Positions 7,575 through 49,282 of a stretch of DNA of 64,000 bases are shown in pieces; the first letter of the stretch is position 1; every line of letters starts with the position of its first letter. The notes beneath the pieces are model-generated. The model saw only the letters and a program-made list of their open reading frames with translations. It had not been told where the DNA came from and searched no databases. The stretch covers positions 10,471-74,470 of the forward strand of contig JAAYIC010000077.1 in the NCBI GenBank assembly GCA_012735195.1, read 5' to 3'. This stretch comes from Bacillota bacterium. GTDB taxonomy: Bacteria > Bacillota > UBA4882 > UBA10575. A program made the translations under genes and the position numbers.

Positions 7575-7791
7575 ACCGGCTACCCATGAACCTGGTCATA
7601 AGTCATAAGCGGGCACGCATAGATTGCGGTCAAAAACCCGCCCAAGCAAGCTTGAGAACAATAAACCCCCTTTTGCTTCTTCCTTTGGTTTTGCCAACCA
7701 AAGAAACTGCAAAACGGGGGTGAGACCGTCTTTTGCTCAAACCCGGCCTGGCGGGCCTGGTGTTCAGGTGTTTATGAAATCATCTTCTTAT

Positions 7792-17020: not shown

Positions 17021-17428
17021 ATGGCCATCAAATGGTCGCCGGAGTATGCAATTGACGTTGAGATCATTGATAATCAGCATAAGGAATTGTTCAACGCAAT
17101 AAATGATCTGCTTGAAGCCTGTAACCAGGGGAAAGGGAAGGAAGAGGCCGGAAAAATCTTAAAATTCCTTGAAAATTATGTGGTTGAGCACTTTCATACA
17201 GAAGAAGGGATCCAAAAAGAAAGCGGCTTTCCCGAATACGAGGCACACAAAAGAGCCCATGACGGTTTCATCCAATCCTTTAATGAACTAAAAAAAGCCT
17301 TTGACGAAGAGGGCGCCACTTTGAGTTTTGTGGTAAAAATAAACAGAATAGTGGTGGACTGGTTAATTCAACATGTAACCCAGGCCGACAAAAGACTGGG
17401 GGTCTTCTTAAAAAAAGGAACGCTATAA
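17021..17428 (+). CDS. Bacteriohemerythrin
   Basis: MAIKWSPEYAIDVEIIDNQHKELF..., with HFHTEE, H..H...F and DWLIQHVTQADKRL iron-ligand blocks. AGGAGG RBS. The track ORF starts 13 codons earlier. Confidence 0.85.
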   Translation: MAIKWSPEYAIDVEIIDNQHKELFNAINDLLEACNQGKGKEEAGKILKFLENYVVEHFHTEEGIQKESGFPEYEAHKRAHDGFIQSFNELKKAFDEEGATLSFVVKINRIVVDWLIQHVTQADKRLGVFLKKGTL

Positions 17429-17467
17429 AACCGCCATCATCCCGCTCTATCTTCACTTAAGTTTTTT

Positions 17468-19596: not shown

Positions 19597-21531
19597 TTAC
19601 ACCAATTCCGGCTGGGGCGCCCGTAACCCTATTCGCCGGCCGGGGCGGTTTTCTCCATACACTTCATGGAGATAACGGAGGAACCTTGGTGGTATCTGTT
19701 TGTAAAGGTGGTGGTACATCCCGGTAATCAACTGATCCGCTGCGGGCGCCTGCGTCCAAACCTCCTGCAGGCAACTGGTGCCAAGAAAAAGCTCCCGGCA
19801 ATAGTCTTTTAGAGAAACCGCTATTTCCTGTACGCTTGTACCCTCCTGTCCGGTCTTTTCCCGTAACGCCAAAAGAGCTAGCCCGGCGTTTTCCTGGTGT
19901 TTCCTGACCCGGTCCAGACGGTTCTTTTGTTCCGCATTCAGCCAGCCCAAATTCTCCAGGGTTCTCTGTAAGTATTCACACCGGTACTCCAGGAATAAAC
20001 GGGCTATTTCCGCCAAACCCTGGATGACCTCATCCCATTCCTCGGCAGTCAACTTCCAATCACCACGGGGCCGGAGGTTTTCCCGGCCGGAAAGTTCCTG
20101 GCAGATCATGTACAAGGCAGCCACCGGCCTTTTTTGCCGCGCCTCGTCCGGGCGCCACCCCCAGTTACAGGCCCTCTTCATCAACCGGCCCAGCAGCCGG
20201 TAACGCAGATCCGGCGCCAGCCGGGTGGGGTGGTACTCCACATCCCGCAACTCCCCGGCGGAAGCAGGCAACGTCAGGTCAAAACCGGCCTGGTCCATGA
20301 GGAAGTTGGTTACCAAGGAAAAATAGCGTCCCGGTTCCCAGAAGGCCAACGGCCAGTCCCGAAGGTAATCCTGGACCACGTCAACCCCGCCCACCTCCCC
20401 GCTGCCCAAAGGCGGGTAATGGCCGTCGGTCCGCAACACCGGCCGGATCTCCGGCGCCCAACTGATCTGGTCGAATTCTACAAAATAGAGGGTTTCTGCC
20501 CGTTTGCCGAGATATCCTTCGCGCTCCAGGTATTCCTGGGGTGTGGTAAAGAGGATCTTCCCTTTTTCTTCCCGGATAACCCGTTGCCACGCCTCCTCCA
20601 TGATCTTAAACGCCGCATCGCCGAAGTCCATCAACTCCAAATCTTGAATATAAAGGAGAAGGCCTTTGTCGGGAGCCCTGTCCAGCTGGTCGAGGAGGAT
20701 ACGGGCGTATTCGGCCACCCCTTCCTCATGGGAAACGGGGAAACTTACCCGGGCTTCTCCGCGGTACTCTTCAGGGAAAACCGGGTAATCGCCCAGGAGA
20801 TACCCTTGCGCCCGTAGCGGTTTGGGGTGCATCCGGGTCACCGGACGCCAAATCTCCTGAGAAATCGGGAAGTTCCTGGGCAAGCCCAGCAAGCCCCTGC
20901 CGGAAGGCGTCTCCCCGTTCCCAAGTCGGAACGGCCGGTAAACAACTTCGTCCGGACGGGACCCCGCCTCCTCCTGCCGGGGAGTCAATACCCGGTAACG
21001 GCATTTGTCCGGGTGGAGATGGGGAAAGACCAAATATTTAAGGCCAAAACTCCGGTAAGCCTCCAGTTTATGACTGTCCAGCGACCCTTCGGTGGGAAAG
21101 GCTCCTAAAACCGCCGGGAGCGCCACCCCCATCTCTTCCCGGTAAAACTCGGCGTTCAAACGGAGTTCATCATAGATCTCCTCTTCAGTCAAGAGTGTGA
21201 TATGCGTGTGGTGGGCATGGCCCAGGATTGGATGGAGCGCCCCTTCGCGAAAGGCCGCCTTTAACTTGGAAAAAGTTTCGGGCGTAATCTGTTCCAACTG
21301 AAAAAGCAGTTCATTGCTGGCCTCCAAGCAAAGGGGGGTGTTCAACCTCCGGCCCATTTCCAAAAAGTCCAGGTAAAGATCGCGCCCTTCTTCTTTTCGC
21401 CGGCGCAAATAGTTTTCAGCGGTCACTCCGGACCGGATCTCTTCCCGGTCGGCCAACGCCTGTAACTGGCCGGGAAAATCCCATAATGGTTCGTGGGCGT
21501 GAAAACACAAGATCACATATACCTGCTTCAT
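19597..21531 (-). CDS. Divergent GH57-like (glycoside hydrolase/deacetylase fold) protein
   Basis: 644 aa. N-terminal VILCFHAHEPLW resembles the GH57 HxHQP block. Translationally coupled (ATGA-type overlap) to the upstream GH57 gene. Function not assignable by eye. Confidence 0.45.
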   Translation of the reverse strand: MKQVYVILCFHAHEPLWDFPGQLQALADREEIRSGVTAENYLRRRKEEGRDLYLDFLEMGRRLNTPLCLEASNELLFQLEQITPETFSKLKAAFREGALHPILGHAHHTHITLLTEEEIYDELRLNAEFYREEMGVALPAVLGAFPTEGSLDSHKLEAYRSFGLKYLVFPHLHPDKCRYRVLTPRQEEAGSRPDEVVYRPFRLGNGETPSGRGLLGLPRNFPISQEIWRPVTRMHPKPLRAQGYLLGDYPVFPEEYRGEARVSFPVSHEEGVAEYARILLDQLDRAPDKGLLLYIQDLELMDFGDAAFKIMEEAWQRVIREEKGKILFTTPQEYLEREGYLGKRAETLYFVEFDQISWAPEIRPVLRTDGHYPPLGSGEVGGVDVVQDYLRDWPLAFWEPGRYFSLVTNFLMDQAGFDLTLPASAGELRDVEYHPTRLAPDLRYRLLGRLMKRACNWGWRPDEARQKRPVAALYMICQELSGRENLRPRGDWKLTAEEWDEVIQGLAEIARLFLEYRCEYLQRTLENLGWLNAEQKNRLDRVRKHQENAGLALLALREKTGQEGTSVQEIAVSLKDYCRELFLGTSCLQEVWTQAPAADQLITGMYHHLYKQIPPRFLRYLHEVYGENRPGRRIGLRAPQPELV

Positions 21532-22751
21532 AAGGTCTTTGCGCCTCCAAAAGTCAACTCGTGAGCCACATCTTCATGGGTCCGCTGGTACTCCCGGATC
21601 AACCTCTCGGCATAGCCGCTCTCCCGCCACTGGCGCGCAGTCTCCCCAATCTCCGCCGCCAGCGCTTCCGCTTCTGCGATCTTTTCCGCACTGCCTGCAC
21701 TCTTAATCGCCTCCAGCAGTTGACCGGCGCCTTTCTCAATCATCTCCACATTAAAATACTGCCGGCAACTGGCCCACCAATACTGGCAACTATGCAGGCC
21801 GCGGTCCAGATGGGACCGGGCCGGTTCTTCCTCTCCCGCTTCCTCCACAGCCTCCAGAGCCAGGTTGGTCAGGCGCCACTGCAGCTCATGGAGTTGGTTG
21901 CCGGGAAACTCCCACTGGGGATAAGGGATCCCTGCTTCCAACTCATCCTCCCAGGTGCTCCAGGAAGCGGCAACAGTCTCCACTTCCTCCCGGGCAGGGA
22001 AGAACTCCGGCAACTCCGAAATGGTACAGGTTCTAATCTCCGGGTGCCGGAAGGCTTCGGCCAAAAGGTTTTCCAACCCTTGATGATGATGGCCGTAGAT
22101 CTCCCCGTCGGTACCGGTTAAGAGGTAAGTCTCCCGCCGGTGGTATCCGGGATCGAGATCCGCCAGGAATTCCTCGAGGTTCCGGTATTTGCCGTAGGTA
22201 AGGGCTGCACTGTATTTTCGCTCCTTGAAAAAGATCCCAAACTCATCCAGCCCCTTCACCGAATAAACCCGGCCGGGAGCGATCCGGGCCAGGCGCCCGT
22301 TGTAGCTGAGTTCATCCGCGATAATCCAGGAAAACCCCTCTTCTTTAACGATCTCCGCCAGCCGCCGATTATAGCACATTTCCGGCGGGAAAAACCCGCG
22401 GGGCTGAAAGGCTTCGCCCAGGTACTCCCTGTTGGCTTCCTGGTTGAGCCGGATCTGCCGGCGGACCTCCTTTTCAGGGATCAGAGGCAAAATCGGGTGG
22501 TACATGGCGCTGCCGGTAAATTCGATCCTGCCCTCCTCCGCCAGTTCCCGCAGGCCGTCAAGGATATCGTTCATACCGTAATGGTGGAACTGCTCTGTCA
22601 GGCTGCCGTTGATATTCAAGGTCAACCGGCCGCCGGGGTTTTCCCGTAAAATTTTCACCAGTTGGCGGTAGCATTCGTCCGCCACTTTTTCCACGATCCA
22701 CCGCTCCTGGACCGGAGGCTGATAAAGATGGAGAAAATTGGCCCAGTACAT
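21528..22751 (-). CDS. Glycoside hydrolase family 57 protein
   Basis: 407 aa. FLHLYQPP, GFFPPEMCY and TGTDGEIYGHH resemble conserved GH57 regions containing the catalytic Glu/Asp. Confidence 0.7.
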   Translation of the reverse strand: MYWANFLHLYQPPVQERWIVEKVADECYRQLVKILRENPGGRLTLNINGSLTEQFHHYGMNDILDGLRELAEEGRIEFTGSAMYHPILPLIPEKEVRRQIRLNQEANREYLGEAFQPRGFFPPEMCYNRRLAEIVKEEGFSWIIADELSYNGRLARIAPGRVYSVKGLDEFGIFFKERKYSAALTYGKYRNLEEFLADLDPGYHRRETYLLTGTDGEIYGHHHQGLENLLAEAFRHPEIRTCTISELPEFFPAREEVETVAASWSTWEDELEAGIPYPQWEFPGNQLHELQWRLTNLALEAVEEAGEEEPARSHLDRGLHSCQYWWASCRQYFNVEMIEKGAGQLLEAIKSAGSAEKIAEAEALAAEIGETARQWRESGYAERLIREYQRTHEDVAHELTFGGAKTL

Positions 22752-33148: not shown

Positions 33149-33352
33149 TAATTTCCAAAAAATGGCGACAAAGAGAGCATGACGGCAAAGATCAATAAAA
33201 TAATAACATAATTTTCGCTTCTCCGGTCTCCCGTCTCTTTTGCCAAGTCATTTTTTGCAATATAATAGATTATAATATCAACCAATAGTATTATATTAGA
33301 CCAAGCATAGCGCAGGAATTACCAATGAATATCGTTGCAGTTGGGTGATGAA

Positions 33353-36300
33353 ATGGAAAAAACAGTTGTTGCCGGAGAAAAAACGAATCTTAACGGGTTC
33401 GCGCCTGCCTTCCCGTTCCCATCCGAAGTTACAACAGGCGAAAAAGGGGCTTCCGCTCCCCTGAGCAACCTGCAGCAAATTCCGCCGATCGAAACCGGGA
33501 GGTACCTCACGTATATCAGAAACCGTCAGGTCGCCTCCTGGGAGGATATCCCCCGGACAGTAAGAAGAGAGGTCCTCCTCCGGGCCTGCCGGGAACGGGG
33601 GCGCAGTCACCCGCTGCTGATGACTTTTGAAGATTTTGCCCGCCCTTTCCGGTTTTTGAAGAACAAAACCCTGACCGGTTTTTATAACTTCTATAACAAC
33701 CTATGCCGGGGTCCCCGCGGCATGGTTATTAGATATATCTGTGAGGATCTGAATATTGAGACCGCCATGGAAGACTGGATCGCTTATCTCACCGCCGGCG
33801 CCACCGTGCCTTCATGGCAGATCCTTCCGGAACAAGTTCTGAAAGACCTGCTGATCATGGCCGCCGCCGCCCTGGGCTACAGTAATCCCCGGATGATGTC
33901 AACGGAGGATCTGAAGACCGGGATCGACTTCTTGCAGGGTCTTTCCTTGTATAGTTTTATCATCCGTTATGCCGGCAATACCACCGCGGATCTCCGGGCC
34001 TTGGACCGCCTCTGCGACGAATATGGGATCCCGCCCCTTTCTTTTACGGAATGGCTCGTCCTTGCCGGGCGCCCCAATTTCCGCTGGCAACGGTTTCCCC
34101 CTCCGTATTTACACCGTTTGTTATACCTCCTGGCAGAAGAGGCCGGAAAAGGTACCCCACGGATGCTGAAGTATAAAGATTTTTGCCGGCCGCTGGCCGC
34201 CCTGAACAACCGGGACCTTACCGGTTTGTACCACTGCTACTCCCGGTTAAAAAAGGATAAAAACATCAGCACCGTGGAGTTTATCTGCGATACGGCCGGC
34301 ATCCCCGGTTATAACCTGTCGCAATGGCTGGCAACCGGCGCCCCCGGCTCCCGCATCTCCTGGGAATCCCTTTCTCCCCAGTTAATAAAGGAGGCTCTTT
34401 GGAAGGCCGCGGGGGAATTAGGGTTAAAAAACCCGCGTTTAATGGATTCCACCGACTTCTTCCGGCGATTTTCTTTTTTAAACGGAAAAACCCTTTCCGG
34501 GCTGTACGCCCGGATCAAAACCTACCCCAACTTCTGGGATATGTTTGGGATCGAACGGCCAAGCATTGAGGATTGGTTGGAACTGATTTGTTCCTCCCCC
34601 CAAATACGCTGGGAGAAAGTCCCCGTAAAGATCCAGCGGGAGATTATCCTCAAAGCCGCAGCAGAAGCCGGCCTGCCGCATCCCGGTTCGTTAAAGGCCC
34701 GTGATTTTATCGCCAGACCTTTCCAATTTTTGGGCGGCAAAAACCTGAGCGGCCTCTATTTTCATTATGCGGCAAAGAAAAAACAAAACACCCTTTCCGT
34801 ACCTGAGTATATCCTGAGTAGCCTGCAAATCCCGTCAGCCGGGATTAACCTGAAAACCGGCAGGATAAATACGATCGACAGCCTGAACCACCGGAAGTAT
34901 TTTGACAGCAAAGCCAATTGCCGGGCCTTTCTCAACTCCTATCTGCAACACTTTTCCCTGAAAAGCCTGGTTAAAAAGGATTCCATGCTCCGTAACGCCA
35001 AAAAAGCCGGTATCTACAAAAAAGGCCTTCTCTCCCTGGTAGGTCCCATGAATCAAAGAGAATACCTGGATTTTCTTTATGAATTACTAAAAAACACGCC
35101 CCTGGATGCTTTGGGCCTGCCGGAACCCGGCCGCGGTGATTACCGGCTGTTACGAAACCATCTCTATGCTTTGGCGGGAATTAAGGAACAAGAAGAAAAA
35201 GAGGAAAAAGCAAAGAGGATCCCCCCGGCCGGCCCTAGCCCGGTAAAAATGCGAACAAAAGCGGCTGTCCTGCGTGAACTCCAGCAGCACAGGGAGATTC
35301 TCGCCTTGAAAGAAAAGAAATACCACCGGGTTGATTGTGTCTGTCTTTCTACCGACGGGAACGAGGCGGTTTTCCGGGTACCCGCCCCCTTTTTGCCCGG
35401 CGACATTTTAACCGCCCCCGACGGTGAAGAGTTCAGAGTGGGCGAATGCCATCCGGAAACCTCCGGTGACGGGTATGTCATTGAAGTGGAAGCGGTTTTG
35501 CCGCTCCCGGCGGAAAAAATCGCCGGCATCCAAAGGCTGGTGAAAGATTCCAACGAGGCGATCCTCGGCGCCCACCTGGAAAAATTGGCGGAACAGGTGG
35601 AAAACGGGACAGTTTCGCCCCTGCTCGCCGGGGTTTTAGGGTTGCGTAAAGAAAAACTGCTTAACCCGGAACGGCTACAGATCATCCCAAAAAGGGCTTA
35701 CTTTAATAAAGGCCTTGCCAAAAATAAAGCACAGACCGAAGCATTGAACCTGGCTTTGGCCCTTGACGGCGACACCCATACCCTGGTTGTGGTTCAGGGC
35801 TCGCCGGGTACCGGGAAAACCACTTTAATTACGGAGATTGCCCTCCAGTCTTATCTCAAGGGGGAGAATATCCTGATCCTGGCCAAGACCAACGTGGCGG
35901 TGGATAACATCCTGGAGAAGCTGATGGATAAAAAGATCCGTGTTTTACGTTCCGGCAATAATCTGCACTGGAAGTCCAACCTCCCCGGTGTACATACGGT
36001 TTCCACAGCCAACTCCCTCCACCTGGCTGCCATGGAAAGAGGGAATAAAGTCATTCTCGGCACGCCCCTCGGGTTCTACCTGGACCGGAACCTCCCACCG
36101 GCCGAGTATGACCTCCTGATTATTGACGAGGCCTCCCAGATGGATATCCCGGAAACCCTTTTTTCGCTGGGTTTTGCCAAAAAATGTGTTATGATCGGCG
36201 ATCACCTGCAGATCCCCCCCTACCCGATCGCCCAGGAAATCCTGGCGGAATATAACTCCCGGCTCACCCCGGCCGAAAAGGAAAAACTCCAGATGAGCCT

Positions 36301-37018
36301 TTTTGAACGGCTCATTGCCGACGGGAACAGGTTTAACCGGGTCTTCCTTGATATTAATTACCGCACCGCCCACCCGGAGATGGTCTCCTTTATCTCCGAC
36401 CTGATCTACGACGGCCGGCTCTCGCCCAATACCGATTCGGATTATTACAAACTCTCGCCGGCCGGCCGGAGAAAATTCTTCCCTTATCCCGTTGAGATCG
36501 TTGATACCGCCGGGATCTCCGACCCTAAACTGCGGGCGGAGACGGAGATTAATTCCACCTATTACAATCTGACCGAGGCCATGCTCTGTGTCCGCCAGGT
36601 CCTGAACCTGCTGGAAAACGGCGAAAAATTAACGGATATCGCTGTGATCACCCCCTACAAAGCCCAGGTGGAAAAGGTTAAAGAGATGTTCAGGGAGAAT
36701 TTTAACTACTTCTCCGTGGCAGAAAGCGCCTTCCAGGAGTTCATCGAGAACAGGATCTACACCATCGATTCCTTTCAAGGCCGGGAAGAAGAGATCGTCA
36801 TTATCAGCTGGGTACGGAGTAACTACGAGCCCGGTCAACCCCGGAAAACCGGCTTTTTAAAGGACTTCCGCCGGGTGAACGTCTCCCTTTCCCGGGCGAG
36901 AAAAAAAATGATCCTGATCGGAGATTATGAAACCCTGACCAATTCGGATAATCTTGTTGTCCGTTACATCTTCCGCCAGATCAAGAACCTCCGGGCGGAA
37001 CAGAAGATTGTTTTGTAA
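33353..37018 (+). CDS. Large SF1 (Upf1/DNA2/NAM7-like, AAA_11/AAA_12) helicase with five N-terminal ~90-aa tandem repeats
   Basis: Helicase motifs VVVQGSPGTGKTT (Walker A, ~35798-35824), LIIDEASQM, INYRTAHP, VITPYKAQV, TIDSFQGREEEIVIISWVRSN and RVNVSLSRARKKMILIGD. The N-terminal repeats are anchored by W at approx. aa 69/161/251/343/426 of the track ORF. Start codon uncertain (TTG 33335 or ATG 33353). Confidence 0.8.
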   Translation: MEKTVVAGEKTNLNGFAPAFPFPSEVTTGEKGASAPLSNLQQIPPIETGRYLTYIRNRQVASWEDIPRTVRREVLLRACRERGRSHPLLMTFEDFARPFRFLKNKTLTGFYNFYNNLCRGPRGMVIRYICEDLNIETAMEDWIAYLTAGATVPSWQILPEQVLKDLLIMAAAALGYSNPRMMSTEDLKTGIDFLQGLSLYSFIIRYAGNTTADLRALDRLCDEYGIPPLSFTEWLVLAGRPNFRWQRFPPPYLHRLLYLLAEEAGKGTPRMLKYKDFCRPLAALNNRDLTGLYHCYSRLKKDKNISTVEFICDTAGIPGYNLSQWLATGAPGSRISWESLSPQLIKEALWKAAGELGLKNPRLMDSTDFFRRFSFLNGKTLSGLYARIKTYPNFWDMFGIERPSIEDWLELICSSPQIRWEKVPVKIQREIILKAAAEAGLPHPGSLKARDFIARPFQFLGGKNLSGLYFHYAAKKKQNTLSVPEYILSSLQIPSAGINLKTGRINTIDSLNHRKYFDSKANCRAFLNSYLQHFSLKSLVKKDSMLRNAKKAGIYKKGLLSLVGPMNQREYLDFLYELLKNTPLDALGLPEPGRGDYRLLRNHLYALAGIKEQEEKEEKAKRIPPAGPSPVKMRTKAAVLRELQQHREILALKEKKYHRVDCVCLSTDGNEAVFRVPAPFLPGDILTAPDGEEFRVGECHPETSGDGYVIEVEAVLPLPAEKIAGIQRLVKDSNEAILGAHLEKLAEQVENGTVSPLLAGVLGLRKEKLLNPERLQIIPKRAYFNKGLAKNKAQTEALNLALALDGDTHTLVVVQGSPGTGKTTLITEIALQSYLKGENILILAKTNVAVDNILEKLMDKKIRVLRSGNNLHWKSNLPGVHTVSTANSLHLAAMERGNKVILGTPLGFYLDRNLPPAEYDLLIIDEASQMDIPETLFSLGFAKKCVMIGDHLQIPPYPIAQEILAEYNSRLTPAEKEKLQMSLFERLIADGNRFNRVFLDINYRTAHPEMVSFISDLIYDGRLSPNTDSDYYKLSPAGRRKFFPYPVEIVDTAGISDPKLRAETEINSTYYNLTEAMLCVRQVLNLLENGEKLTDIAVITPYKAQVEKVKEMFRENFNYFSVAESAFQEFIENRIYTIDSFQGREEEIVIISWVRSNYEPGQPRKTGFLKDFRRVNVSLSRARKKMILIGDYETLTNSDNLVVRYIFRQIKNLRAEQKIVL

Positions 37019-40252: not shown

Positions 40253-40272
40253 TAATTAATATATAAATAATA

Positions 40273-40310
40273 AGCTGAGGGTGTATAACCGCCCTCAGCT
40301 TTATTTTATT
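40273..40310 (+). terminator. Rho-independent terminator of the OFOR operon
   Basis: agctgaggg-N10-ccctcagct followed by ttattttattttt. Confidence 0.8.
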
Positions 40311-40314
40311 TTTG

Positions 40315-40436
40315 TTCCCTAATTCTTTATTCCCTAATTCTTACGGCCTTCTTCATACCCTTATTCTTCATGCCCGATTTTTTATACCCTGATTCTTCAT
40401 ACCCCATAATTTTTTATACCCCGTTTTTTATCTCGT
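40315..40436. repeat. About eight degenerate ~15-nt tandem repeats, G-poor on the plus strand
   Basis: ttccctaattcttta / ttccctaattcttac / ...tacccttattcttca / tgcccgatttttta / taccctgattcttca / taccccataatttttta / taccccgtttttta. Confidence 0.75.
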
Positions 40437-40534: not shown

Positions 40535-42028
40535 CTAATCTATGTTGCTTCTGCGCTTGACGCCCACTGCCATAAAAATACCCGGCGAATCCCAATTTTC
40601 CGCAATAACGCCTATGCGTAACCAAAGATCCCTCTGCAAACGCCAGACCGCCTCGAGCCGCTGCGCAGACCACCCGGGATTACCGGTTAAAGCCAAAGCC
40701 AGCTCCAGTTCGTCCAGATCCCATTCCAGGCCGGCCCGCCAGTAGCTCTTTGCCAGTTCGGTCCGGCCGTCAAGCAGAAAGACCAACGGGTACCAGGTTA
40801 CAAAGGCACGTACATGAGGGGAGAGTTGTACGTTATCAGAAACCCCCGTCATCAGGACGGGAGTGGCCACGGGTCCTAACCCCCCGGCAAGAGCGGCATC
40901 GAAAAATGTGCCGGACCCGGCCCACAGTTCCCTTTTTATCCCGATAAAATAGGTCTTCGGGGCCCGGGCGGAAACCTCCAGATCGCCCGCGTCACCCAGA
41001 GGCATGGTAAGACGCACGGCAGGGTTTAGTTCTCTCCCGGACGCGGATCCGCTACTGATCAAGCCGGTCTCAAGGATCAGTTCCTTATCGGGGCTCTGCG
41101 GAGAATGGGGGGCAAGGAGTCTCAATCCATCCAGGGAAGCCATGGGGATAACCGGCATCTCCGCCAATTGTTTCAGCCTAAACGGAACAGCACTCAACAC
41201 CAGGGCAAAAACCCGCTGTTCTTTCAACCCCGCAGTAAAAAGCCTTCTTTCTTTCCGATCCATCGTCCGGCGCATGAAGGCAATGATCTCCGGCTTTCCC
41301 CCGGCAGAGTTGACAGTGGTGGCCAGGGCAGCCTTTTCACCGTGATCCTGGTTTTCCCGCAGAAAAGAGACCTTCGTCTCCACCCGGCCGGTTTCTCTTT
41401 GGATAAAAACCGGGGTAATCTCCAGAAGGTAATTCTCGTCCTTATCATAGTATTCCGGATAAATAGCGCCGGTTTTCCACTTTACCGGCCGGCCGGGTAC
41501 GGCGATTATCCATGCCTCGGATGCCCCTTCATAACTACTGGATTCCGGTACACCGGGGTGTTTCATAAACCCATTTTCCACTAAAAAACGGACCCCGTTC
41601 TCGCCCCGGAGAATCTGGGGAGTTGCCACTAAACGGTAACTCTCCGCCGGTGTGCCGGTTCTGACTTCTCCGGAAAACACCCAGCCCCAGGTGGAGGTGG
41701 TTCCCAATTCCACGATCCTGAGGGAATATAAGATGAAGAGGGTGGCCGCATCGGCCAGGTTTTCCCTGAGAGCGGCCAAAACCTCTTCATCGGTTACCGC
41801 CGGGGCGGAAAGAAAATAGATCTCTTCTTCTTCATCATAGATCAGCCATCCATTAAAACCGGCGGGCATCTCCAGAACTCCGGGAGAAATAAACCCTAAC
41901 GGGATAAAGACAAGATCCGGCGTTATCTCTGTCTTCTCCGGGCCTTCAACCGCCCCGGCACCTGTGACCGGTAGCGTAATTAAGGCTAAAGCCAACACCA
42001 ACCCGCAGAGCCGGTGGTTTTTAATCAT
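40535..42028 (-). CDS. Secreted beta-rich protein of unknown function (497 aa), last gene of the secretin locus
   Basis: Start MIKNHRLCGLVLALALITLPVTGAGA (signal peptide) inside an ATGATTAA overlap with the upstream stop. The track ORF carries a 46-codon spurious extension. The C-terminal ~170 aa show alternating amphipathic strands (YFIGIKRELWAG..., VTWYPLVFLL, WRAGLEWDLDELELALALTG, LWLRIGVIAENW). Confidence 0.6.
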   Translation of the reverse strand: MIKNHRLCGLVLALALITLPVTGAGAVEGPEKTEITPDLVFIPLGFISPGVLEMPAGFNGWLIYDEEEEIYFLSAPAVTDEEVLAALRENLADAATLFILYSLRIVELGTTSTWGWVFSGEVRTGTPAESYRLVATPQILRGENGVRFLVENGFMKHPGVPESSSYEGASEAWIIAVPGRPVKWKTGAIYPEYYDKDENYLLEITPVFIQRETGRVETKVSFLRENQDHGEKAALATTVNSAGGKPEIIAFMRRTMDRKERRLFTAGLKEQRVFALVLSAVPFRLKQLAEMPVIPMASLDGLRLLAPHSPQSPDKELILETGLISSGSASGRELNPAVRLTMPLGDAGDLEVSARAPKTYFIGIKRELWAGSGTFFDAALAGGLGPVATPVLMTGVSDNVQLSPHVRAFVTWYPLVFLLDGRTELAKSYWRAGLEWDLDELELALALTGNPGWSAQRLEAVWRLQRDLWLRIGVIAENWDSPGIFMAVGVKRRSNID

Positions 42029-43229
42029 TTTCCGCCACAACCTCCGCTGAAATAAAAACCAGTAATTCACTTTCCTTCTGCTCCTCCCTGCCTTCCCGGA
42101 AGAGAAGGCGCAAAAGCGGAATCCTCCCAAGAACCGGGGTTTGCGATGTTCTGTTCCTGTCTTCAACTTGGGTCAAGCCGCTGACCAGAACGGTCTGACC
42201 GGGAATAAGGCGTAGCGTTGACCCGAACTCCGCCATTCTTACCACCGGTTCACTGCCGTTATTGTCCACGAAATAGCTGACCGTCTGGGTCATCTCCAAC
42301 TCGATACGGTCTTCGAAGACCCGGGGAGTAACCTTCAGACCCGTGCCGGCCTCAATCTTTTCGATCTGGTCGTAATTCTCATACACATCCAAAATCAAGA
42401 CCCGTTGTTCCCCGACAAAAAGGTCGGCGGTCTTCCCGTCCGCCACCTGAATCACGGGGTCGGCATGGATTTTAGCTGCGCCTTCCTTCTCCAAGGCCCG
42501 GATCTTGGTATGCAAAAGGCCAAAAATATCGGTTTCAATACCAATAGCTCCAGGGGCCAGATCCAAAATTGTCGTCCAGTCCGGTTTTTTTGCCAGACTG
42601 GAAGTAAACTCCCAGTTAAAGAGGTCGATTCCCCATTCCTTGATCACTTCTGTCTGTACTTCGGAGACTAGTGCCTTCACCCTTACCTGCGCCCGGGGGG
42701 TGTCGATCTTTTTGAAATCCGCAATGATCCGCTCCTTTAACCCACGGGGCGCAGTGATAGCCGCCACGTTTGCCTCCTGGTCAAAACGGACGTTTTGGCG
42801 GAAAGCATCAGGGAGCAACGCTTCTACAGTAGAGACCTTTACGTTCTTAAAGAAGAAAAATTCTGTTTCGGCGAGATCCGCAAAAACCCTGTTTCGTGGG
42901 TCAGCCAGCCCTACCAGATAATAATCGTCGACCTTACGGTAGCTAAACCCCCCTCCTGCCAGCATCATCTGGAGCGCTTTCTCTAAAGGTGTGTCCTCCA
43001 GCTCCAAGGTGACCGTTCCCGTAATGTTTTCATCCATTACTATATTTACTCCCGTCTGGAGGGCTACCTCCCGCAAGGCTTCCCGAAGTTCCATCTCAAA
43101 AAAGACAATTGTGACTAAAGGCTCCGCTTCCTGTTCTGCCCGGACCGACAAGGGTGTTGTCGCCGGTCCGGGGAGGAAAAAGATGAAGAAAAAAGCGCAG
43201 ATCAGGAAGATCATCCGCCGACTCAACAT
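42021..43229 (-). CDS. Minimal secretin (type II/III secretion system secretin-family protein), 402 aa
   Basis: Signal peptide. N0-like block (FFEMELREALREVALQTGVNIVMDENITGTVTLELEDTPLEKALQMML), N1-like block (FFFFKNVKVSTVEALL...ITAPRGLKERIIADFKKID). Secretin core QVRVKALVSEVQTEV ... TPVLGRIPLLRLLFRE ... ELLVFISAEVV. Confidence 0.7.
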   Translation of the reverse strand: MLSRRMIFLICAFFFIFFLPGPATTPLSVRAEQEAEPLVTIVFFEMELREALREVALQTGVNIVMDENITGTVTLELEDTPLEKALQMMLAGGGFSYRKVDDYYLVGLADPRNRVFADLAETEFFFFKNVKVSTVEALLPDAFRQNVRFDQEANVAAITAPRGLKERIIADFKKIDTPRAQVRVKALVSEVQTEVIKEWGIDLFNWEFTSSLAKKPDWTTILDLAPGAIGIETDIFGLLHTKIRALEKEGAAKIHADPVIQVADGKTADLFVGEQRVLILDVYENYDQIEKIEAGTGLKVTPRVFEDRIELEMTQTVSYFVDNNGSEPVVRMAEFGSTLRLIPGQTVLVSGLTQVEDRNRTSQTPVLGRIPLLRLLFREGREEQKESELLVFISAEVVAEND

Positions 43230-43319
43230 ATCCTCTCACCTCTTACTTTCTTCACGGGCGTGAGCGCGTGAAGAATCAATTTAACCCCTATTATCACGCG
43301 CCCGTACATGGACGGGCCT

Positions 43320-44849
43320 TTATAGAGGTCCGGCCATCGTCAGGGCTGCCAATTCCTTCTTTTCTGCCTGGATTGAAACTTCCATTTGGTAGTCGCCAGG
43401 GGGAATTCTCAGGGACGTCCCTTGCAACGTTGAAAGCTTGCCCGGCAGTACCGGTGTTTTTTCCTCGCCTGCTCCGGATAATTCCACTATGGTAACGGTC
43501 CTTCCCTCCGGATCTTTAACCACGACCCGGCCTGAGGGGAAAATTTTGATATTACCGGTATTTTTAAGCACGAGAGAGAAAAGCACTTCTTCACCCAAGC
43601 GTTCGCTGGTAAAATTAAGCATTTCTGCAGTATACTGATGGTCTCCGGCAACCACCGCTTCAAGCGGAATCATCTGTTCATAAAGGAGCTCCCCATCAAG
43701 CTTAAAAGCGTCTACTCTCAAAAAACCGTAATTTCCTTGTATCTGTGCATCCCTGGGAAAATGAACCGTGGTAATTACCGTCTTTTTCTTCCCCGGTTCC
43801 AACAGAAACTGATTGTCACCCCGGATTGTGAACTCTGTATGTTCAAAGATGGAATAGGCGTAACCGTACTCCAGGTTAACCGGGGTCAAACAGAGAACAC
43901 AGGCCTCTCCGGAGGTGTTTTTAATAGTCAAGGCCCGGCTGGAGACGGTCCCCGGGCGTCCGGCGAAGCTCAGTTCATCCAAAGATACTTGCAGGGCGGT
44001 CTTTTGCGTTTCTGGAAAACTGAAATCCTCTGCCCCAATTTCCACGGTTTTGGTGACTATTAATTGTTTTCCTGCGGCATAGCGGAAGAACAAACGGAGC
44101 TGATACTCTCCGGGCGGCAAGTATTTTCGAACCGTACCAATGTACAGCAATTTACTAAAGGGATACATCAAAATATCCTGTTGGGCATGGTCCCATAGCT
44201 TCTCCGGACGCAGTTCCACCCTTTCCACCAGCCGTCCTTGTCCATCCCGTACCGTGGCTTCGGCGGCAGTTGGATAATCCAAAGCAGAAGTATTCCGGAC
44301 CAGAGCCTGCAGGACCGGTTCCTTCTCCTCCCCGGCGGTCAAGGTGAATTCCTCTACCTCCGCCGTCGGGCGCAGGCCCGGTCTTTCCACCTTAATCCGC
44401 AGGCGGACGGCGAAACGGAAATGAATGGCGATTTCAGCATCTTGTTGTATCTCCGGTTCCACCATAATCGTGACCATATGTGAGCCCCTCGCGTCAAAAG
44501 GCACCCGTACCCTGCCGGTGACCTTTAGTTCCTCCCCGGGGATAAGGAGAAGCTTGTTTTCATCCAGTTCAACCCAGTTAATGGCCGGGTTTCGTAAAGG
44601 GTCGCCTTCTTCAAAGACCAGTCCTCCGTCCAACTGTTGCAACGGCTGATAAAGGCTGGCATTGATTAAGGTCTTTGTCTCTTCCGGAGAGAGGAGGATC
44701 GCAAAATCCTTGACTGCTCCCGGTTCAAGGTCCATCTCGATAACCAACGGCCGGAGACCAATAGCAAGAACGTCCCCGGAAAAACAAAAAAGCAAAATCA
44801 ATACTACAATCGTAAAACCCATAATGCGCAGCATAAAGACCACCTTCAC
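43320..44849 (-). CDS. Secreted four-module Ig-like/beta-sandwich protein (509 aa), chaperone- or scaffold-like
   Basis: Signal peptide (...SGDVLA|IGLRPLVIEMDLEPG). Four ~120-aa modules each end in a PG..(K/E).V...V..P.....G.Y-type pattern (IPGEELKVTGRVRVPFDARGSHMV; PPGEYQLRLFF; EPGKKKTVITTVHFPRDAQIQGNYGF; PPGDYQMEVSI). Alternative ATG start at 44834. Confidence 0.55.
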   Translation of the reverse strand: MKVVFMLRIMGFTIVVLILLFCFSGDVLAIGLRPLVIEMDLEPGAVKDFAILLSPEETKTLINASLYQPLQQLDGGLVFEEGDPLRNPAINWVELDENKLLLIPGEELKVTGRVRVPFDARGSHMVTIMVEPEIQQDAEIAIHFRFAVRLRIKVERPGLRPTAEVEEFTLTAGEEKEPVLQALVRNTSALDYPTAAEATVRDGQGRLVERVELRPEKLWDHAQQDILMYPFSKLLYIGTVRKYLPPGEYQLRLFFRYAAGKQLIVTKTVEIGAEDFSFPETQKTALQVSLDELSFAGRPGTVSSRALTIKNTSGEACVLCLTPVNLEYGYAYSIFEHTEFTIRGDNQFLLEPGKKKTVITTVHFPRDAQIQGNYGFLRVDAFKLDGELLYEQMIPLEAVVAGDHQYTAEMLNFTSERLGEEVLFSLVLKNTGNIKIFPSGRVVVKDPEGRTVTIVELSGAGEEKTPVLPGKLSTLQGTSLRIPPGDYQMEVSIQAEKKELAALTMAGPL

Positions 44850-44921
44850 ATCTCTTTAATGGCATGGACAAGGGGGGCAAAACCGCCACCCCTTATCCAC
44901 CACGCTTGGTTAGTTCAGTTT

Positions 44922-45437
44922 TTACCAGGCAAACACCGTGACGGTGAATTTAGCCTTGTACTTGCCGGCCGCTTGCGAATAGACCTCTCCCAGTTTTCCT
45001 TTGACATCAAGGAGATACCATTTACCCTCTTGTCCTTGGACAGGCCATCTGGCATCCACTGGTCTAAAGGAATCGGTCCGGAGAATTTGTTCGCCTCTGT
45101 CATCGCCGTAGCGGGCAGCCCGCTGAATCTTGGCCCTGGTATAGAAGGTGTCACCTTTGAGTTTGTGGGTGAAATCCTTCTGGTTCAGCTGCATGCCGAT
45201 CTTGGTATTGGAGACCACATAAAAATAATCTCTCCAGGTATGCTCTTCACCCGCATAACCCACATAACAGAGTATAGGATTATTGGGGTCATTCAAATCG
45301 CGGATCTCCGCATACGGATGGACGATCGCCCGAACCTCTACGGTATCACTGTCCAACTTCTTCTGGGCCAGACCGGTGCTGGCTAGTGCCAGTACGAGTA
45401 CAAAAGCCAAGCCTAAGATGATAAGCCTCTTCATCAC
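44922..45437 (-). CDS. Small secreted beta-rich pilin-like protein (171 aa)
   Basis: Strong AAGGAGG RBS. Signal peptide MMKRLIILGLAFVLVLALASTGLA|QKK. C-terminus ...AAGKYKAKFTVTVFAW resembles the terminal strand of SCPU/Csu/DUF4402-type fimbrial subunits. Followed by a stable hairpin (44870-44894). Confidence 0.55.
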   Translation of the reverse strand: MMKRLIILGLAFVLVLALASTGLAQKKLDSDTVEVRAIVHPYAEIRDLNDPNNPILCYVGYAGEEHTWRDYFYVVSNTKIGMQLNQKDFTHKLKGDTFYTRAKIQRAARYGDDRGEQILRTDSFRPVDARWPVQGQEGKWYLLDVKGKLGEVYSQAAGKYKAKFTVTVFAW

Positions 45438-45579
45438 TCTTTTCCTCCTTTGCTAATTTTCAATTCTGAACAGTGTTTTTTGCACGCGTGCGTGCTATGA
45501 TTAATCCTACCCTGCTCCGGCAACCACCTCCTCCGGTCAACCGGCGCTATGTGCCCTTTGCTCATTGATTTTTCACTGA

Positions 45580-46125
45580 TTACTGTGAAGTGACAGTTGC
45601 GGTAATGCTTCCCCGGTACTCGCCCGCCGGTTGTTCCGAAACTTCATCTATGGCGACTCCCCCGTAAATTTTGAAACGTTGTGTATCACCATTCAACGGT
45701 AACACCAGGGGAGGACCACCCGGACGAAAACTCCAAGCTTCCCTCTCCGGCCAATCTACCCAATAAACCACGTTTAACTCGGCTTTCTTACCGCGGGTCC
45801 GGGAATAAAGGGGGGCGGCAGAAAATTTTACCAAGGCCGGGCCTCTCACCTGGACATAACAATGCCCGGGTCTTTTTTCACGGTAAAAACCCTTTGCCCC
45901 GTTGATTTCAAACCGGGGCGCGGCGACCAGAACGGAAACGTATGCCTCAGCAGGCTCTGTCACGACTTTTTTGACCTTAAAAGCCGCTTCACATGCGCCC
46001 GTACGCGCAACCCACTGCCCGCCGGTGCATTCCTGGATTTGGAAGATTATCACCGGTAGCATCAAGACCGCTGTGAAGATAAGAAGCCGGATTAGCCGCA
46101 CCCACGCACTTAACCCTGTAACCAC
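45580..46125 (-). CDS. Small secreted beta-rich pilin-like protein (181 aa)
   Basis: GTG start 10 nt after AAGGGGG. N-terminal hydrophobic segment. C-terminus ...VSEQPAGEYRGSITATVTSQ has the same terminal-strand pattern as the 171-aa neighbour. Confidence 0.5.
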   Translation of the reverse strand: MVTGLSAWVRLIRLLIFTAVLMLPVIIFQIQECTGGQWVARTGACEAAFKVKKVVTEPAEAYVSVLVAAPRFEINGAKGFYREKRPGHCYVQVRGPALVKFSAAPLYSRTRGKKAELNVVYWVDWPEREAWSFRPGGPPLVLPLNGDTQRFKIYGGVAIDEVSEQPAGEYRGSITATVTSQ

Positions 46126-46230
46126 CTGGGATATGCCCCCTTGTCCGCCCGCTTGGAAATGATTCCAAAGTAATATATGAATGGAATAGAAAAATATGAC
46201 ACTCTAAAAATTTTTTCTCCAGTTTTTGGG

Positions 46231-46260
46231 AAAAGAAAAAACCGCAAAAATTGCGGTTTT
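46231..46260 (-). terminator. Rho-independent terminator downstream of the prepilin peptidase gene
   Basis: Minus strand: aaaaccgcaa-ttt-ttgcggtttt followed by a tttctttt T-tract. It separates the peptidase gene from the five-gene locus. Confidence 0.7.
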
Positions 46261-46367
46261 CAAGAGATATTTTAGGTATAGCTTTATGTAACCCGGTTAC
46301 AGATGTCTTGCCTTTTCTGTCGAACGCAAGGCTTTTTCATTCAGGCAAAAAACGCCGGTTTAACCAC

Positions 46368-47150
46368 TTAATGGACGAGGGGAAAGAAAAGTCCCGGCAA
46401 ATCCGGGAAGTAAAGGATAATAAAGGCGGCAACAGCCAAAAATGTCCCGAAGGGGATCGGGTCTTTACGCGTCATTTTTTTCGTCGCGATCAGCACCAGG
46501 GCAACGGCGGTCGCCAAGAGGCTGGCGAGAAAGAGGACGAAAAAGATCCGTTGCCAACCCAAATATACCCCGATCATAGCGAGGAGTTTCACGTCACCCA
46601 TTCCCATCCCTTTGGGGTAGCACAAGGCGATCAGGAAGAGAACCCCACCGCCAAGGACTCCGCCGATGAGCGCGGTGGGCAACTCCCCTTTCCATCCCAT
46701 AAAAACCAGTCCCGCCAGGAGAAAAGGAATGGTCAGGCGGTTTGGGATGATTTTATGTTCCAAGTCAATAAAAGCCACCCCAATCAAGGCGTAGGTCAGG
46801 ACTAAATATATAAATTTCCCGGTAGTCCCGGAGAATTTCATCCCCCATAAAACCGTCACCACCCCGCCCAGGAATTCGACGAACGGATAACGGAGGCTGA
46901 TCGCACGCCTGCAGTGGCGGCATTTCCCCCGTAGCCAAAGAAAACTGAAAAGGGGGATCAGCTCCACCGCGCTCAGCCGGCGCCCGCAAGAGGGGCAACG
47001 GGAACGGGAGAACCCCATTTTTTCGCCGCGCGGCAGACGGTAAATGAGGACATTGAGGAAACTCCCTACCGCCAGGCCGCAAAGGAATAAGAATAAATGG
47101 TTGATAACGGACGGACGGAATAGATCCAAGTAATTGGTCTCTGCAATCAT
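46368..47150 (-). CDS. Prepilin (type IV leader) peptidase, A24 family
   Basis: True start MIAETNYLDLF... N-terminal Zn-finger CPSCGRRL...CRHCRR, GMGMGDVKLL and polytopic A24 body. The 138 upstream codons of the track ORF are Pro/Arg-rich nonsense. Confidence 0.85.
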   Translation of the reverse strand: MIAETNYLDLFRPSVINHLFLFLCGLAVGSFLNVLIYRLPRGEKMGFSRSRCPSCGRRLSAVELIPLFSFLWLRGKCRHCRRAISLRYPFVEFLGGVVTVLWGMKFSGTTGKFIYLVLTYALIGVAFIDLEHKIIPNRLTIPFLLAGLVFMGWKGELPTALIGGVLGGGVLFLIALCYPKGMGMGDVKLLAMIGVYLGWQRIFFVLFLASLLATAVALVLIATKKMTRKDPIPFGTFLAVAAFIILYFPDLPGLFFPLVH

Positions 47151-47353: not shown

Positions 47354-49282
47354 ATGATCCATTATGACGATGCCGCACTGGGCGCCCTTTATAGTAAAGA
47401 TCGGACAATTTTCCGGGTCTGGGCGCCCGGGGCACTCCGGATGCAGCTAAAGACTTATCCCAGTGGGCACGAGGGCGAGGCCACGGTCTATGAGATGTAC
47501 AAGGATCCCAACGGGTTCTGGGTACAGATCCTCGAAGGCGACCGGCACGGGCTCTATTATACATATGAAGTCACCCACTACCACGGGGTCTTTGAGGTGG
47601 TGGACCCCTACGCAAAAGCCCTTGGCGTTAACGGCAACCGCGGTATGGTGGTTGATCTTGCCCGGACAAACCCGGAAGGGTGGGATGATTTTCCAAAGCC
47701 AACACTGAAAAGCTTCACTGACGCCATCATCTATGAGGTCCATATCCGCGATTTTTCAATCCATGAAGATTCCGGGGTTAAGCATAAGGGCAAATATCTG
47801 GGGGTGGTCGAGGCGGAGACCCGCGGTCCCCAAATGGTCAAAACCGGCCTGAGCCATCTGGTGGAATTGGGCATCACCCACCTGCATCTCCTGCCGGTGC
47901 AGGATTATTATACAGTTGATGAGAGTAAACTCTCGGAGCCCCAATACAACTGGGGTTACGACCCAAAGAACTATAATGCGCCCGAAGGCTCATATGCCAC
48001 CGACCCGTATAACGGAGAAACCAGAATCCGCGAGTTTAAAACGATGGTCATGGGTTTAAACCGGGCCGGGATTGGCGTCATCCTGGATGTGGTCTATAAC
48101 CATACCTACCGGTCGGAAGATTCCAACTTAAACCGGCTCGTCCCCGGCTACTACTATCGGTTACACCCGGACGGGTCTTTTGCCAACGGCTCCGGCTGCG
48201 GTAATGAAACAGCCTCCGAACGTTTTATGGTGCGGAAATTCATTATTGATTCGGTGGGCTACTGGGCGACCGAATACAAGGTTGACGGGTTTCGCTTTGA
48301 TCTGATGGCCCTGCACGATCTGGAGACCATGAACCAAATCCGGCAAGCCCTGGACCGGGTCCGCCCGGGAATTCTTCTTTATGGCGAAGGCTGGACCGGC
48401 GGGCCGTCGCTGCTGCCTGCAAAAAAAGCGGCGCTGAAGAAGAATATCCCCCGGATGCCCGGGATTGCCGCTTTTAATGACGATTTCCGGGACGGACTGA
48501 AAGGGCCTATTTTTCATGACCGGGCGCCGGGCTTCACCGGCGGCGCTTATGAGTATAAGGAGAATGTCAAGTTCGGTATAACCGGCGCCACCTATCATCC
48601 GGGTGTTGACTATGAGCGAATGAACCCCCCCGGTAAACCCTGGGCCACCCGGCCCTGCCAATGTGTAAACTATGTCGAGGCCCATGATAACATGACCCTG
48701 TGGGACAGGTTGCTCTGTACCCATGGCCACGAAAACGAGCAAGAGCGGATAAAAATCCACCTGTTATGCGCAGCTTTAGTCCTGACCTCCCAGGGTATCC
48801 CTTTTCTCCATGCCGGCCAGGATTTTTTACGGACAAAATACGGTGACCATAACAGTTACAGTTCCCCGGACCATATCAACCGTTTGGACTGGTCGCGAAA
48901 AGCCGCTTATCTGGAGGTTTTCCGCTATTACCAGGGTCTGATCGCCCTGCGCCGGGCCCACCCGGCTTTCCGGATGGTTTCCGCCACGCAGGTCCAAAAA
49001 TACCTACAATTTTTGGACCTCCCGCCCGAAGGAATCGGTTATCTCCTGATCGGGCATGCAAACCAAGACCCATGGGAGACGATTGCCGTTTTGTTCAACG
49101 CCGGCCAAAAAAAGCTGGAGGTCACTCTCCCCGGTGATGAATGGGTGGCCGTTGTTGACGGTAATCAAGCCGGAACCAAGGAGATCAGGCGGATCCATGG
49201 ACGAACATCCCTGGTTCAGCCCCGCTCAGCCCAGATCCTGGTGGATGGAAAAAGTTATGACCGCTCGCTTGCTGCGGGGTAA
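47354..49282 (+). CDS. Type I pullulanase (GH13 with N-terminal CBM48-like domain)
   Basis: 642 aa. YNWGYDP, VILDVVYNHT, DGFRFDLM, YGEGW and YVEAHDN conserved GH13/pullulanase regions. Confidence 0.9.
   Translation: MIHYDDAALGALYSKDRTIFRVWAPGALRMQLKTYPSGHEGEATVYEMYKDPNGFWVQILEGDRHGLYYTYEVTHYHGVFEVVDPYAKALGVNGNRGMVVDLARTNPEGWDDFPKPTLKSFTDAIIYEVHIRDFSIHEDSGVKHKGKYLGVVEAETRGPQMVKTGLSHLVELGITHLHLLPVQDYYTVDESKLSEPQYNWGYDPKNYNAPEGSYATDPYNGETRIREFKTMVMGLNRAGIGVILDVVYNHTYRSEDSNLNRLVPGYYYRLHPDGSFANGSGCGNETASERFMVRKFIIDSVGYWATEYKVDGFRFDLMALHDLETMNQIRQALDRVRPGILLYGEGWTGGPSLLPAKKAALKKNIPRMPGIAAFNDDFRDGLKGPIFHDRAPGFTGGAYEYKENVKFGITGATYHPGVDYERMNPPGKPWATRPCQCVNYVEAHDNMTLWDRLLCTHGHENEQERIKIHLLCAALVLTSQGIPFLHAGQDFLRTKYGDHNSYSSPDHINRLDWSRKAAYLEVFRYYQGLIALRRAHPAFRMVSATQVQKYLQFLDLPPEGIGYLLIGHANQDPWETIAVLFNAGQKKLEVTLPGDEWVAVVDGNQAGTKEIRRIHGRTSLVQPRSAQILVDGKSYDRSLAAG

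Follow-up and report, generated by a model that had tools for sequence, protein, structure and literature searches.

Five co-directional genes, here termed W1 to W5, occupy positions 40535–46125 of the minus strand in a 64 000-nucleotide stretch of a Bacillota genome (GenBank assembly GCA_012735195.1, contig JAAYIC010000077.1; this whole stretch is referred to as the window). They are read here as a self-contained module for the Sec-dependent, ATPase-independent export or assembly of co-encoded subunits through a secretin, an interpretation that is held tentatively, at somewhat less than an even chance. It is carried by the identities and folds of the parts, by their strict co-occurrence and by the fact that the loci have no genes for an ATPase, an usher or a type IV filament. 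The first-pass annotation of the window, which was made from the sequence alone, knew of no described system of this composition. The literature that was searched likewise contains no description of the combination: no secretin with SCPU-, WxL- or DUF916-type partners was found there, and DUF4402 is unmentioned.

Components of the module

The secretin is encoded by W4 (42021–43229, minus strand; 402 amino acids). Judged by its profile matches, W4 is a true short secretin consisting of an N0/STN domain, one further N-domain and the secretin core, as assigned using Pfam. Both thresholds were passed by this protein, for which a minimal secretin had been claimed: residues 245–398 reach 107.9 bits for Secretin (PF00263; cut-off 27.5, E = 5.5e-31), and the STN domain reaches 32.7 bits (cut-off 28.4, E = 6.6e-8). 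A weak match to GspD N0 was also recorded, and residues 39–115 align to the N0 region of PilQ among PDB sequences. On the evidence of its scores, W4 sits outside all of the named secretin subfamilies (PilQ, GspD, SctC, MshL and HofQ); it remains below the NCBIfam cut-offs for PilQ (112.6 versus 284), GspD (106.9 versus 351), SctC (82.5 versus 238) and MshL (55.6 versus 250).

W5 (40535–42028, minus strand; 497 amino acids from the ATG) begins within the end of W4, with an 8-nucleotide stop/start overlap (ATGATTAA, 42021–42028), and encodes a partner protein with a middle domain that has no Pfam match and a predicted beta-rich C-terminal domain, as characterized using hhalign and Pfam. The longer members of its family (about 560 residues) start with N0/STN- and N1-like domains that are homologous to those of the neighbouring secretin. 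W5 homologues match the secretin N-domains in BLASTP with E values of 1e-11 to 1e-16, the N-terminal 175 residues of the family align with the same domains in hhalign with a probability of 99.4% (E = 4e-21), and Pfam detects STN/N0 in eight of 16 members, with no other Pfam matches. An hhalign comparison over the whole length had suggested that W5 is a second secretin. This was rejected because the middle region matches the secretin core with a probability of 6%; in the domain-wise comparison there is no significant secretin similarity beyond the N-terminal 175 residues.

The last ~180 residues of W5 contain about 10–12 amphipathic beta segments by a crude count, and most homologues end in ...LGVGFxF (e.g. 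...YLGVGFNF or ...LGMGFKF), a beta-signal of the outer-membrane protein (OMP) type. A terminal aromatic motif of this kind is typical of outer-membrane proteins inserted by BAM, and the C-terminal domain of W5 probably sits in the outer membrane. The description of W5 as having a barrel-like C-terminal half was incomplete in that the family also has N0/N1 domains. The usher family (PF00577) is unmatched among W5 family members, and a profile search of the family against PDB sequences returned nothing significant. At one distant locus (L011, 11185–12842) the W5 homologue is split into open reading frames (ORFs) of 521 and 66 amino acids, pointing to a frameshift or an assembly error.

W3 (43320–44849, minus strand; 509 amino acids) is a secreted protein and the proposed subunit-binding partner. 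Its AlphaFold2 (AF2) model, calculated from a 26-sequence alignment with a mean predicted local distance difference test score (pLDDT) of 87.9, shows the four immunoglobulin (Ig)-like domains that the first-pass annotation had recognized as modules. The sole helix in the model is the N-terminal signal sequence, and the C-terminus is a beta-strand (residues 498–508). The N-terminal and C-terminal halves align with each other in hhalign (probability 98.2%, E = 5e-14), with domain 1 pairing with domain 3 and domain 2 with domain 4. As modelled and aligned, W3 consists of a two-Ig unit, resembling WxLIP (DUF916/DUF3324), that has been duplicated in tandem. The lowest Foldseek E values were obtained for long multi-Ig proteins that superpose poorly, with template-modelling (TM) scores of at most ~0.3. 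The best superposition was given by the Enterococcus faecium WxLIP structures 9i1y and 9i25, the latter of which is titled as a WxLIP–long WxL complex (target-normalized TM score 0.56–0.60, E = 2e-10). At the sequence level, sub-threshold matches to PF06030 (WxLIP_PGBD, formerly DUF916) occur in 11 of the 26 family members (best E = 1.2e-4) and to PF11797 (WxLIP_HBD) in three of the 26; the W3 protein of the window has no Pfam match to either family. PapD domains (PF00345/PF02753) were found neither in W3 nor in its 26 relatives, and a profile search of W3 against PDB sequences gave nothing significant.

The two small secreted subunits are encoded by W2 and W1. W2 (44922–45437, minus strand; 171 amino acids) is the core type and occurs in one to four copies per locus. 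Its AF2 model, from a 66-sequence alignment, is an all-beta sandwich with a mean pLDDT of 91.1. The top Foldseek matches of this model are almost all donor-strand fibre subunits, with CanA (9h8b) ranked first and TasA (8aur) fourth, accompanied by CsuE, PapE, CfaB, CS17, FimG/F, the Csu pilus and Caf1. W1 (45580–46125, minus strand; 181 amino acids), a beta-rich subunit of a second type that was delineated from its ORF and homologues, is optional in the family, with homologues at about half of the loci. It aligns with W2, and the two share the C-terminal motif QPAGEYxGxITxTV, which is a family signature ((Q)PAG-Y-G-x-I-TVTV). By inspection, W1, W2 and their homologues carry ordinary hydrophobic Sec-type leaders, and none has a class III (prepilin) signal of the form G/(F,M)xxxE. 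A hydrophobic signal-like N-terminus is present on each of W1–W5, and a Walker A motif is present in none of the five, both of which had been noted at first reading.

To collect relatives of the small subunits, 1.84 billion representative proteins were searched exhaustively with a profile; 62 were found at E ≤ 1e-3, and 56 of these were scanned with Pfam. Weak matches to DUF4402 (PF14352) were obtained for 17 of these 56 (best E = 1.4e-5) and to SCPU (PF05229) for four (best E = 6e-3). For the weakest relatives that were looked up a W3-family gene still follows, and the small-protein family is therefore essentially the subunit set of this system. Profile searches of the small subunits against PDB sequences yielded nothing significant, and W1, W2, W3 and W5 have no NCBIfam match. 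Their C-termini had been likened to the terminal strand of SCPU/Csu/DUF4402-type subunits; the motif is indeed the signature of the family and is accompanied by weak matches in remote relatives, but W1 and W2 of the window are themselves unmatched.

Recurrence of the locus and the proposed mechanism

The W3 family forms 38 clusters in a collection of 5.8 billion proteins, all of them derived from metagenomes or metagenome-assembled genomes (MAGs). When the secretin alignment was searched against one genome per GTDB species, nine loci were found in eight MAGs, all labelled Bacillota bacterium. Each of the nine has the order W1-type (optional), W2-type (one to four copies), W3, secretin, W5. Metagenomic contigs supplied further examples, two of which are permuted (secretin, W5, three subunits, W3). 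Altogether, the gene set recurs at 11 or more distinct metagenomic loci, with protein identities of 30–50%, differing flanks and two gene orders, which places the arrangement far beyond chance. One MAG (OH_SBB_108) contains two copies of the module (L008 and L014), and the L014 copy has three W2-type genes beside one of the W1 type, giving four small-subunit genes. The hosts are uncultured and come mostly from anaerobic-digester metagenomes. The co-conservation of the five genes across related loci, on which the first reading of the locus depended, was thus recovered.

No genes for a PilB/GspE ATPase, PilC, PilMNO, an usher or PapD were found in the flanks of any locus seen. In the 64-kb window, genes for a PilB/GspE ATPase, a PilC/GspF platform and other type IV pilus proteins are absent, with the exception of a prepilin peptidase gene. 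The description of the locus as ATPase-less holds only at the level of the loci and flanks that were covered. Additional conserved partners in the flanks were sought and rejected, as the shared flanking genes are either housekeeping genes (RNase H-like, HD, MiaB-like and HIT) or BTAD regulators. Regulators of the BTAD/SARP type adjoin the module at several distant loci (L004/L007, 7327–8562; L011, 14345–15562; L020, 3475–4692). An equivalent gene is present in L008 (5828–7057), and L002 has a GerE-type response regulator. It is possible that these proteins are dedicated regulators of the module.

From these parts we infer the interactions, the route through the secretin, the polymerization and the energy source as follows. 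Subunits of the W2 type (always) and of the W1 type (sometimes) would cross the inner membrane via Sec. W3 would then hold them in the periplasm and complete their beta-sandwich with a donated strand, in the way that PapD-type chaperones complete pilins and WxLIP is predicted to complete WxL proteins. A complex in the outer membrane would receive them next; in it the W4 secretin would serve as the conduit, and the N0/N1 domains of W5 could stack with or dock onto the periplasmic rings of the secretin. During exit, the subunits would either form a thin fibre, polymerizing through donor-strand exchange, or be displayed on the surface. Folding and strand exchange are proposed as the source of energy, and for this reason an ATPase would not be needed. 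By analogy, the presence of one to four subunit paralogues fits fimbrial operons.

Several observations weigh against this proposal. The similarity of W2 to its Foldseek matches is weak (E values of 8e-4 to 2e-2, TM scores of 0.4–0.56); the beta-sandwich expected of the small proteins was seen in the model of W2. The W1 and W2 proteins of the window have no Pfam match at E ≤ 1, SCPU and DUF4402 included. The WxL Pfam family is unmatched among the members of the small-protein family that were scanned, and the top 50 Foldseek matches of W2 include none to a WxL structure. In the clade of the window W5 is shorter, without N0 and without the aromatic C-terminus, and ends in ...FMAVGVKRRSNID; in the window and in L015/L016 a hydrophilic tail (...VGVKRRSNID) follows the beta-signal motif. 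This short variant is conserved among close relatives and is thus not a pseudogene. All of the secretin-dependent systems known to us (type II and type III secretion systems, T2SS and T3SS, type IV pili, Tad and filamentous phage) need an inner-membrane ATPase machine. PilQ is the top match of W4 among both the NCBIfam models and the PDB sequences. Lastly, the prepilin (type IV leader) peptidase gene (46368–47150, minus strand; A24_N_bact E = 2.4e-32, Peptidase_A24 E = 5.4e-22) directly precedes the module, an arrangement confined to the window and its close relatives (L006 and L015–L017). This neighbour was overlooked when the locus was first described as consisting of five genes, which are otherwise as described; its membership is doubtful.

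The last three observations also favour the principal rival explanation, which we consider unlikely, although it is the strongest of the alternatives. Here the five genes would serve, as an accessory at the outer membrane, a type IV filament machine whose own genes lie elsewhere, be it a type IV pilus, a competence pilus or a T2SS-like system. W4 would be the PilQ of the organism, and W3 and W5 would accompany this secretin as alignment, tethering or pilotin-like proteins. The small proteins would be secreted substrates or surface proteins associated with the secretin, and a distant PilB-type ATPase would provide the energy. In keeping with this, L004 has genes for ComEA and ComEC no more than 10 kb from the module. 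Secretins otherwise belong with T3SS or type IV filament machines, and in many cases they have been co-opted or are encoded at a separate site (PMC6668835). PilQ-dependent pili of Synechocystis are affected by an SCPU subunit and by a PapD-like protein (PMC4390875). Against it, no PilB/T, PilC, PilMNOP or class III signal-peptide pilin genes were found at or beside the loci seen, whereas in Negativicutes and Halanaerobiales PilQ is encoded within the type IV pilus locus (PMC5007114). The secretin remains linked to W2, W3 and W5 even where the order is permuted, the module is duplicated in one MAG and the small proteins carry ordinary Sec signal peptides. The peptidase gene itself lies behind a terminator-like hairpin (46237–46261, minus strand; 11-bp stem, 3-nucleotide loop and T run) that separates it from W1, and it is not beside the eight other loci of the GTDB-species scan.

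One record, L015, had suggested that the peptidase gene and the five genes move together between contexts. This was rejected because the record consists of contigs joined by spacers of 100 N. Spacers were located at 5027–5126, 7775–7874, 15169–15268 and 17352–17451 of this 2.58-Mb record (GCA_900198705.1, FZPS01000076.1), and neighbourhoods that extend across them are artefacts of concatenation.

A second alternative starts from the resemblance of W3 to WxLIP, in fold and weakly in sequence. WxLIP is predicted to act as a strand donor that completes the WxL sandwich, and in WxL clusters a single WxLIP is accompanied by at least two partners, small and large (PMC10599100). The locus could accordingly be a diderm counterpart of the WxL/WxLIP surface complex that makes no fibre: W3 would permanently hold monomeric surface or peptidoglycan-binding modules, with the secretin and W5 merely routing them to, or anchoring them at, the outer membrane. 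Both the cluster composition and the Bacillota host suit this explanation, which we nevertheless regard as improbable. WxLIP is anchored by a transmembrane helix at its C-terminus, and W3 has no such helix. The small proteins, which have no WxL match in Pfam or among the top 50 structures, best match polymerizing subunits, and their varying paralogue number is that of fimbrial operons.

For the secretin-based export module, these comparisons lead to a more specific formulation, which we think rather doubtful as a whole. It describes an ATPase-free donor-strand assembly system in which W3 replaces the PapD chaperone and the secretin and W5 replace the usher, and which is the diderm ancestor type of the Gram-positive WxL clusters. 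If this were true, WxL/WxLIP clusters would be relics of such a system in bacteria that had lost their outer membrane. In terms of mechanism, a secretin serving Sec-exported fimbria-like subunits would be a new mode of use, and the module would represent a new energy-independent route for surface fibres. Ecologically, surface fibres could aid attachment to biomass or to syntrophic partners in anaerobic digesters.

Host envelope, promoter region and neighbourhood

The envelope of the hosts was assessed from genes near the module. Two relatives encode LptC and an LptA-like protein that is a double OstA, 6–8 kb upstream of the module. In L024 (28–3786) these score 29.9 and 80.6 bits, and in L009 (430–2114) 26.6 and 81.3 bits, against Pfam cut-offs of 21 and 20.4, respectively. 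In L024, a beta-rich protein is encoded ahead of both; it has at least 701 residues, a weakly OstA-like N-terminus and a C-terminal Phe, and by sequence it may be LptD. Lpt bridge proteins are hallmarks of a lipopolysaccharide outer membrane. Alongside the secretin and the W5 beta-signal, the Lpt genes of the two relatives indicate that the lineage of the window is probably diderm, spore-forming Bacillota; for the MAG of the window itself this is carried over from its relatives. Diderm spore-forming lineages of Bacillota are already known (PMC5007114), and in a lineage that is probably diderm a secretin in an endospore-former is unsurprising. The cryptic diderm envelope suggested by the first-pass annotation has in this the simpler answer of probably one more diderm sporulating member of the Bacillota. 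A simple filter applied to ~270 kb of related DNA found no other OMP-like ORFs outside the module; its one candidate was a secreted glucanase.

The first-pass annotation had also raised a role in spores, and three of the sporulation genes that it listed (spoIID, a SleB-type hydrolase and YwmB/DUF1779) are present in the window. Around 54 nucleotides upstream of the W1 start lies a candidate sigmaE/K-type promoter motif, TCATATT-N13-CATATATT (46172–46199, minus strand); a sigma-70 promoter scan upstream of W1 gave no match. The sigmaE-like boxes are conserved in four close relatives (among them L006, L016 and L017), with substitutions in the spacer only. A relaxed pattern, [GT][AC]ATAWW-N13-15-CATAY[ATG]NT, has two matches in 64 kb where 0.115 would be expected: the motif upstream of W1 and a site upstream of spoIID (1611–1639), both on the minus strand.

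These data bear on a third alternative, namely that the operon is a sporulation-stage system, transcribed in the mother cell, that builds an appendage on the spore surface or a channel in the membranes enclosing the forespore. As a reading of timing and place this could go together with the proposed export module and, with the motif and the sporulation genes of the window in its favour, is judged highly improbable. The pattern is partly post hoc, and its consensus is that of Bacillus subtilis sigmaE. The distant loci do not have the motif and often carry BTAD-type regulators in its stead. In addition, mature spores of Acetonema longum, a diderm sporulator, are without outer-membrane proteins (PMC13018214), which argues against a secretin in the forespore membranes. 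The proposed spore appendage is thereby left with one weak lead, the sigmaE-like motif of the sub-clade of the window; within this sub-clade the operon may be activated in the mother cell during sporulation.

On the side of W5, the module faces a convergent kor operon (2-oxoacid:ferredoxin oxidoreductase genes). The two are separated by a strong hairpin terminator (40272–40301, plus strand; 12-bp stem with seven GC pairs, T run). Short tandem repeats with units of 15–29 nucleotides (e.g. TTCTTCATACCCTGA) fill positions 40311–40422, between this terminator and the end of W5. With these features, the layout originally reported was found in full: five co-directional minus-strand ORFs, the overlap, the flanking terminators and the repeats. 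The remaining genes of the window around the locus are housekeeping genes. A 1227-residue protein encoded at 33335–37018 (plus strand) has a C-terminal superfamily 1 helicase module (AAA_11/AAA_12) preceded by ~790 residues with no best-stretch Pfam match. Two GH57-related genes lie side by side at 19597–22751 (minus strand), and together with a pullulanase gene (47354–49282) and those for phosphoglucomutase and phosphofructokinase they suggest a neighbourhood devoted to alpha-glucan/glycogen metabolism.

Comparison with known systems

The secretin was compared with PilQ, GspD and the pIV protein of phage f1, with which W4 shares the secretin core and the N0/STN domain. It is close in size to f1 pIV, the chain of which in PDB entry 7ofh has 414 residues compared with 402 for W4 and aligns with it over residues 145–398. 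W4 differs from these proteins in having no type IV filament, T3SS or phage partner genes nearby and in always being paired with W5, a paralogue of its own N-domains.

In function, as far as it can be judged by analogy, the module would work most like an archaic (sigma-type) chaperone–usher system such as Csu, yet it fails both of the features that define such systems, the usher and the PapD domains. The common features are Sec-exported subunits of 150–190 residues with a beta-sandwich and a C-terminal strand of the form (Q)PAG-Y-G-x-h-TVTV, operons with several subunit paralogues, an Ig-domain partner in the periplasm and the lack of an ATPase. The fold matches of W2 include CsuE, the Csu pilus, PapE, FimG/F, CfaB and Caf1, and its relatives show the weak DUF4402 and SCPU matches. 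In contrast to Csu, usher (PF00577) and PapD_N/C are unmatched in W1–W5 at E ≤ 1, a secretin and a protein with secretin N-domains take the place of the usher, the host belongs to the Bacillota, and the subunits of the window are below Pfam detection for DUF4402 and SCPU. The chaperone–usher-like logic put forward in the first-pass annotation thus survives as a functional resemblance and in the fibre-subunit-like fold of W2, but not in its usher and PapD domains.

TasA of Bacillus, the CanA cannulae and related archaeal fibres are also built from secreted beta-sandwich subunits that polymerize by donor-strand complementation with no ATPase, and they are among the top matches of W2. They have no secretin, no WxLIP-like partner and no sequence relationship to W2; to our knowledge, fibres of the TasA/CanA type assemble in organisms without an outer membrane, so that no conduit is needed.

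The nearest precedent for cross-talk, by analogy, is offered by CccS (SCPU) and CccP (PapD_N) of Synechocystis together with PilQ. In that organism an SCPU-type subunit and an Ig-type periplasmic partner are discussed as being functionally linked to a secretin (PMC4390875). Cyanobacteria differ in having an usher homologue, usually adjoining cccSP, and the link to PilQ is indirect and disputed.

The WxL/WxLIP clusters of Enterococcus, Lactiplantibacillus and Listeria resemble the module through W3, the two-domain unit of which superposes on 9i1y and 9i25 with the TM scores of 0.56–0.60 given above, through the weak PF06030 matches in 11 of its 26 family members and through the small beta-sandwich partners with which it is co-encoded. 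The two differ in that W3 is a double unit without a C-terminal membrane helix, that the small proteins here are without WxL motifs or a WxL Pfam match, and that a secretin and an outer-membrane partner are present in hosts that are apparently diderm rather than monoderm. Through W3, the module would be tied to the WxL/WxLIP clusters of monoderm bacteria and would provide a testable case of remodelling in the transition from diderm to monoderm envelopes.

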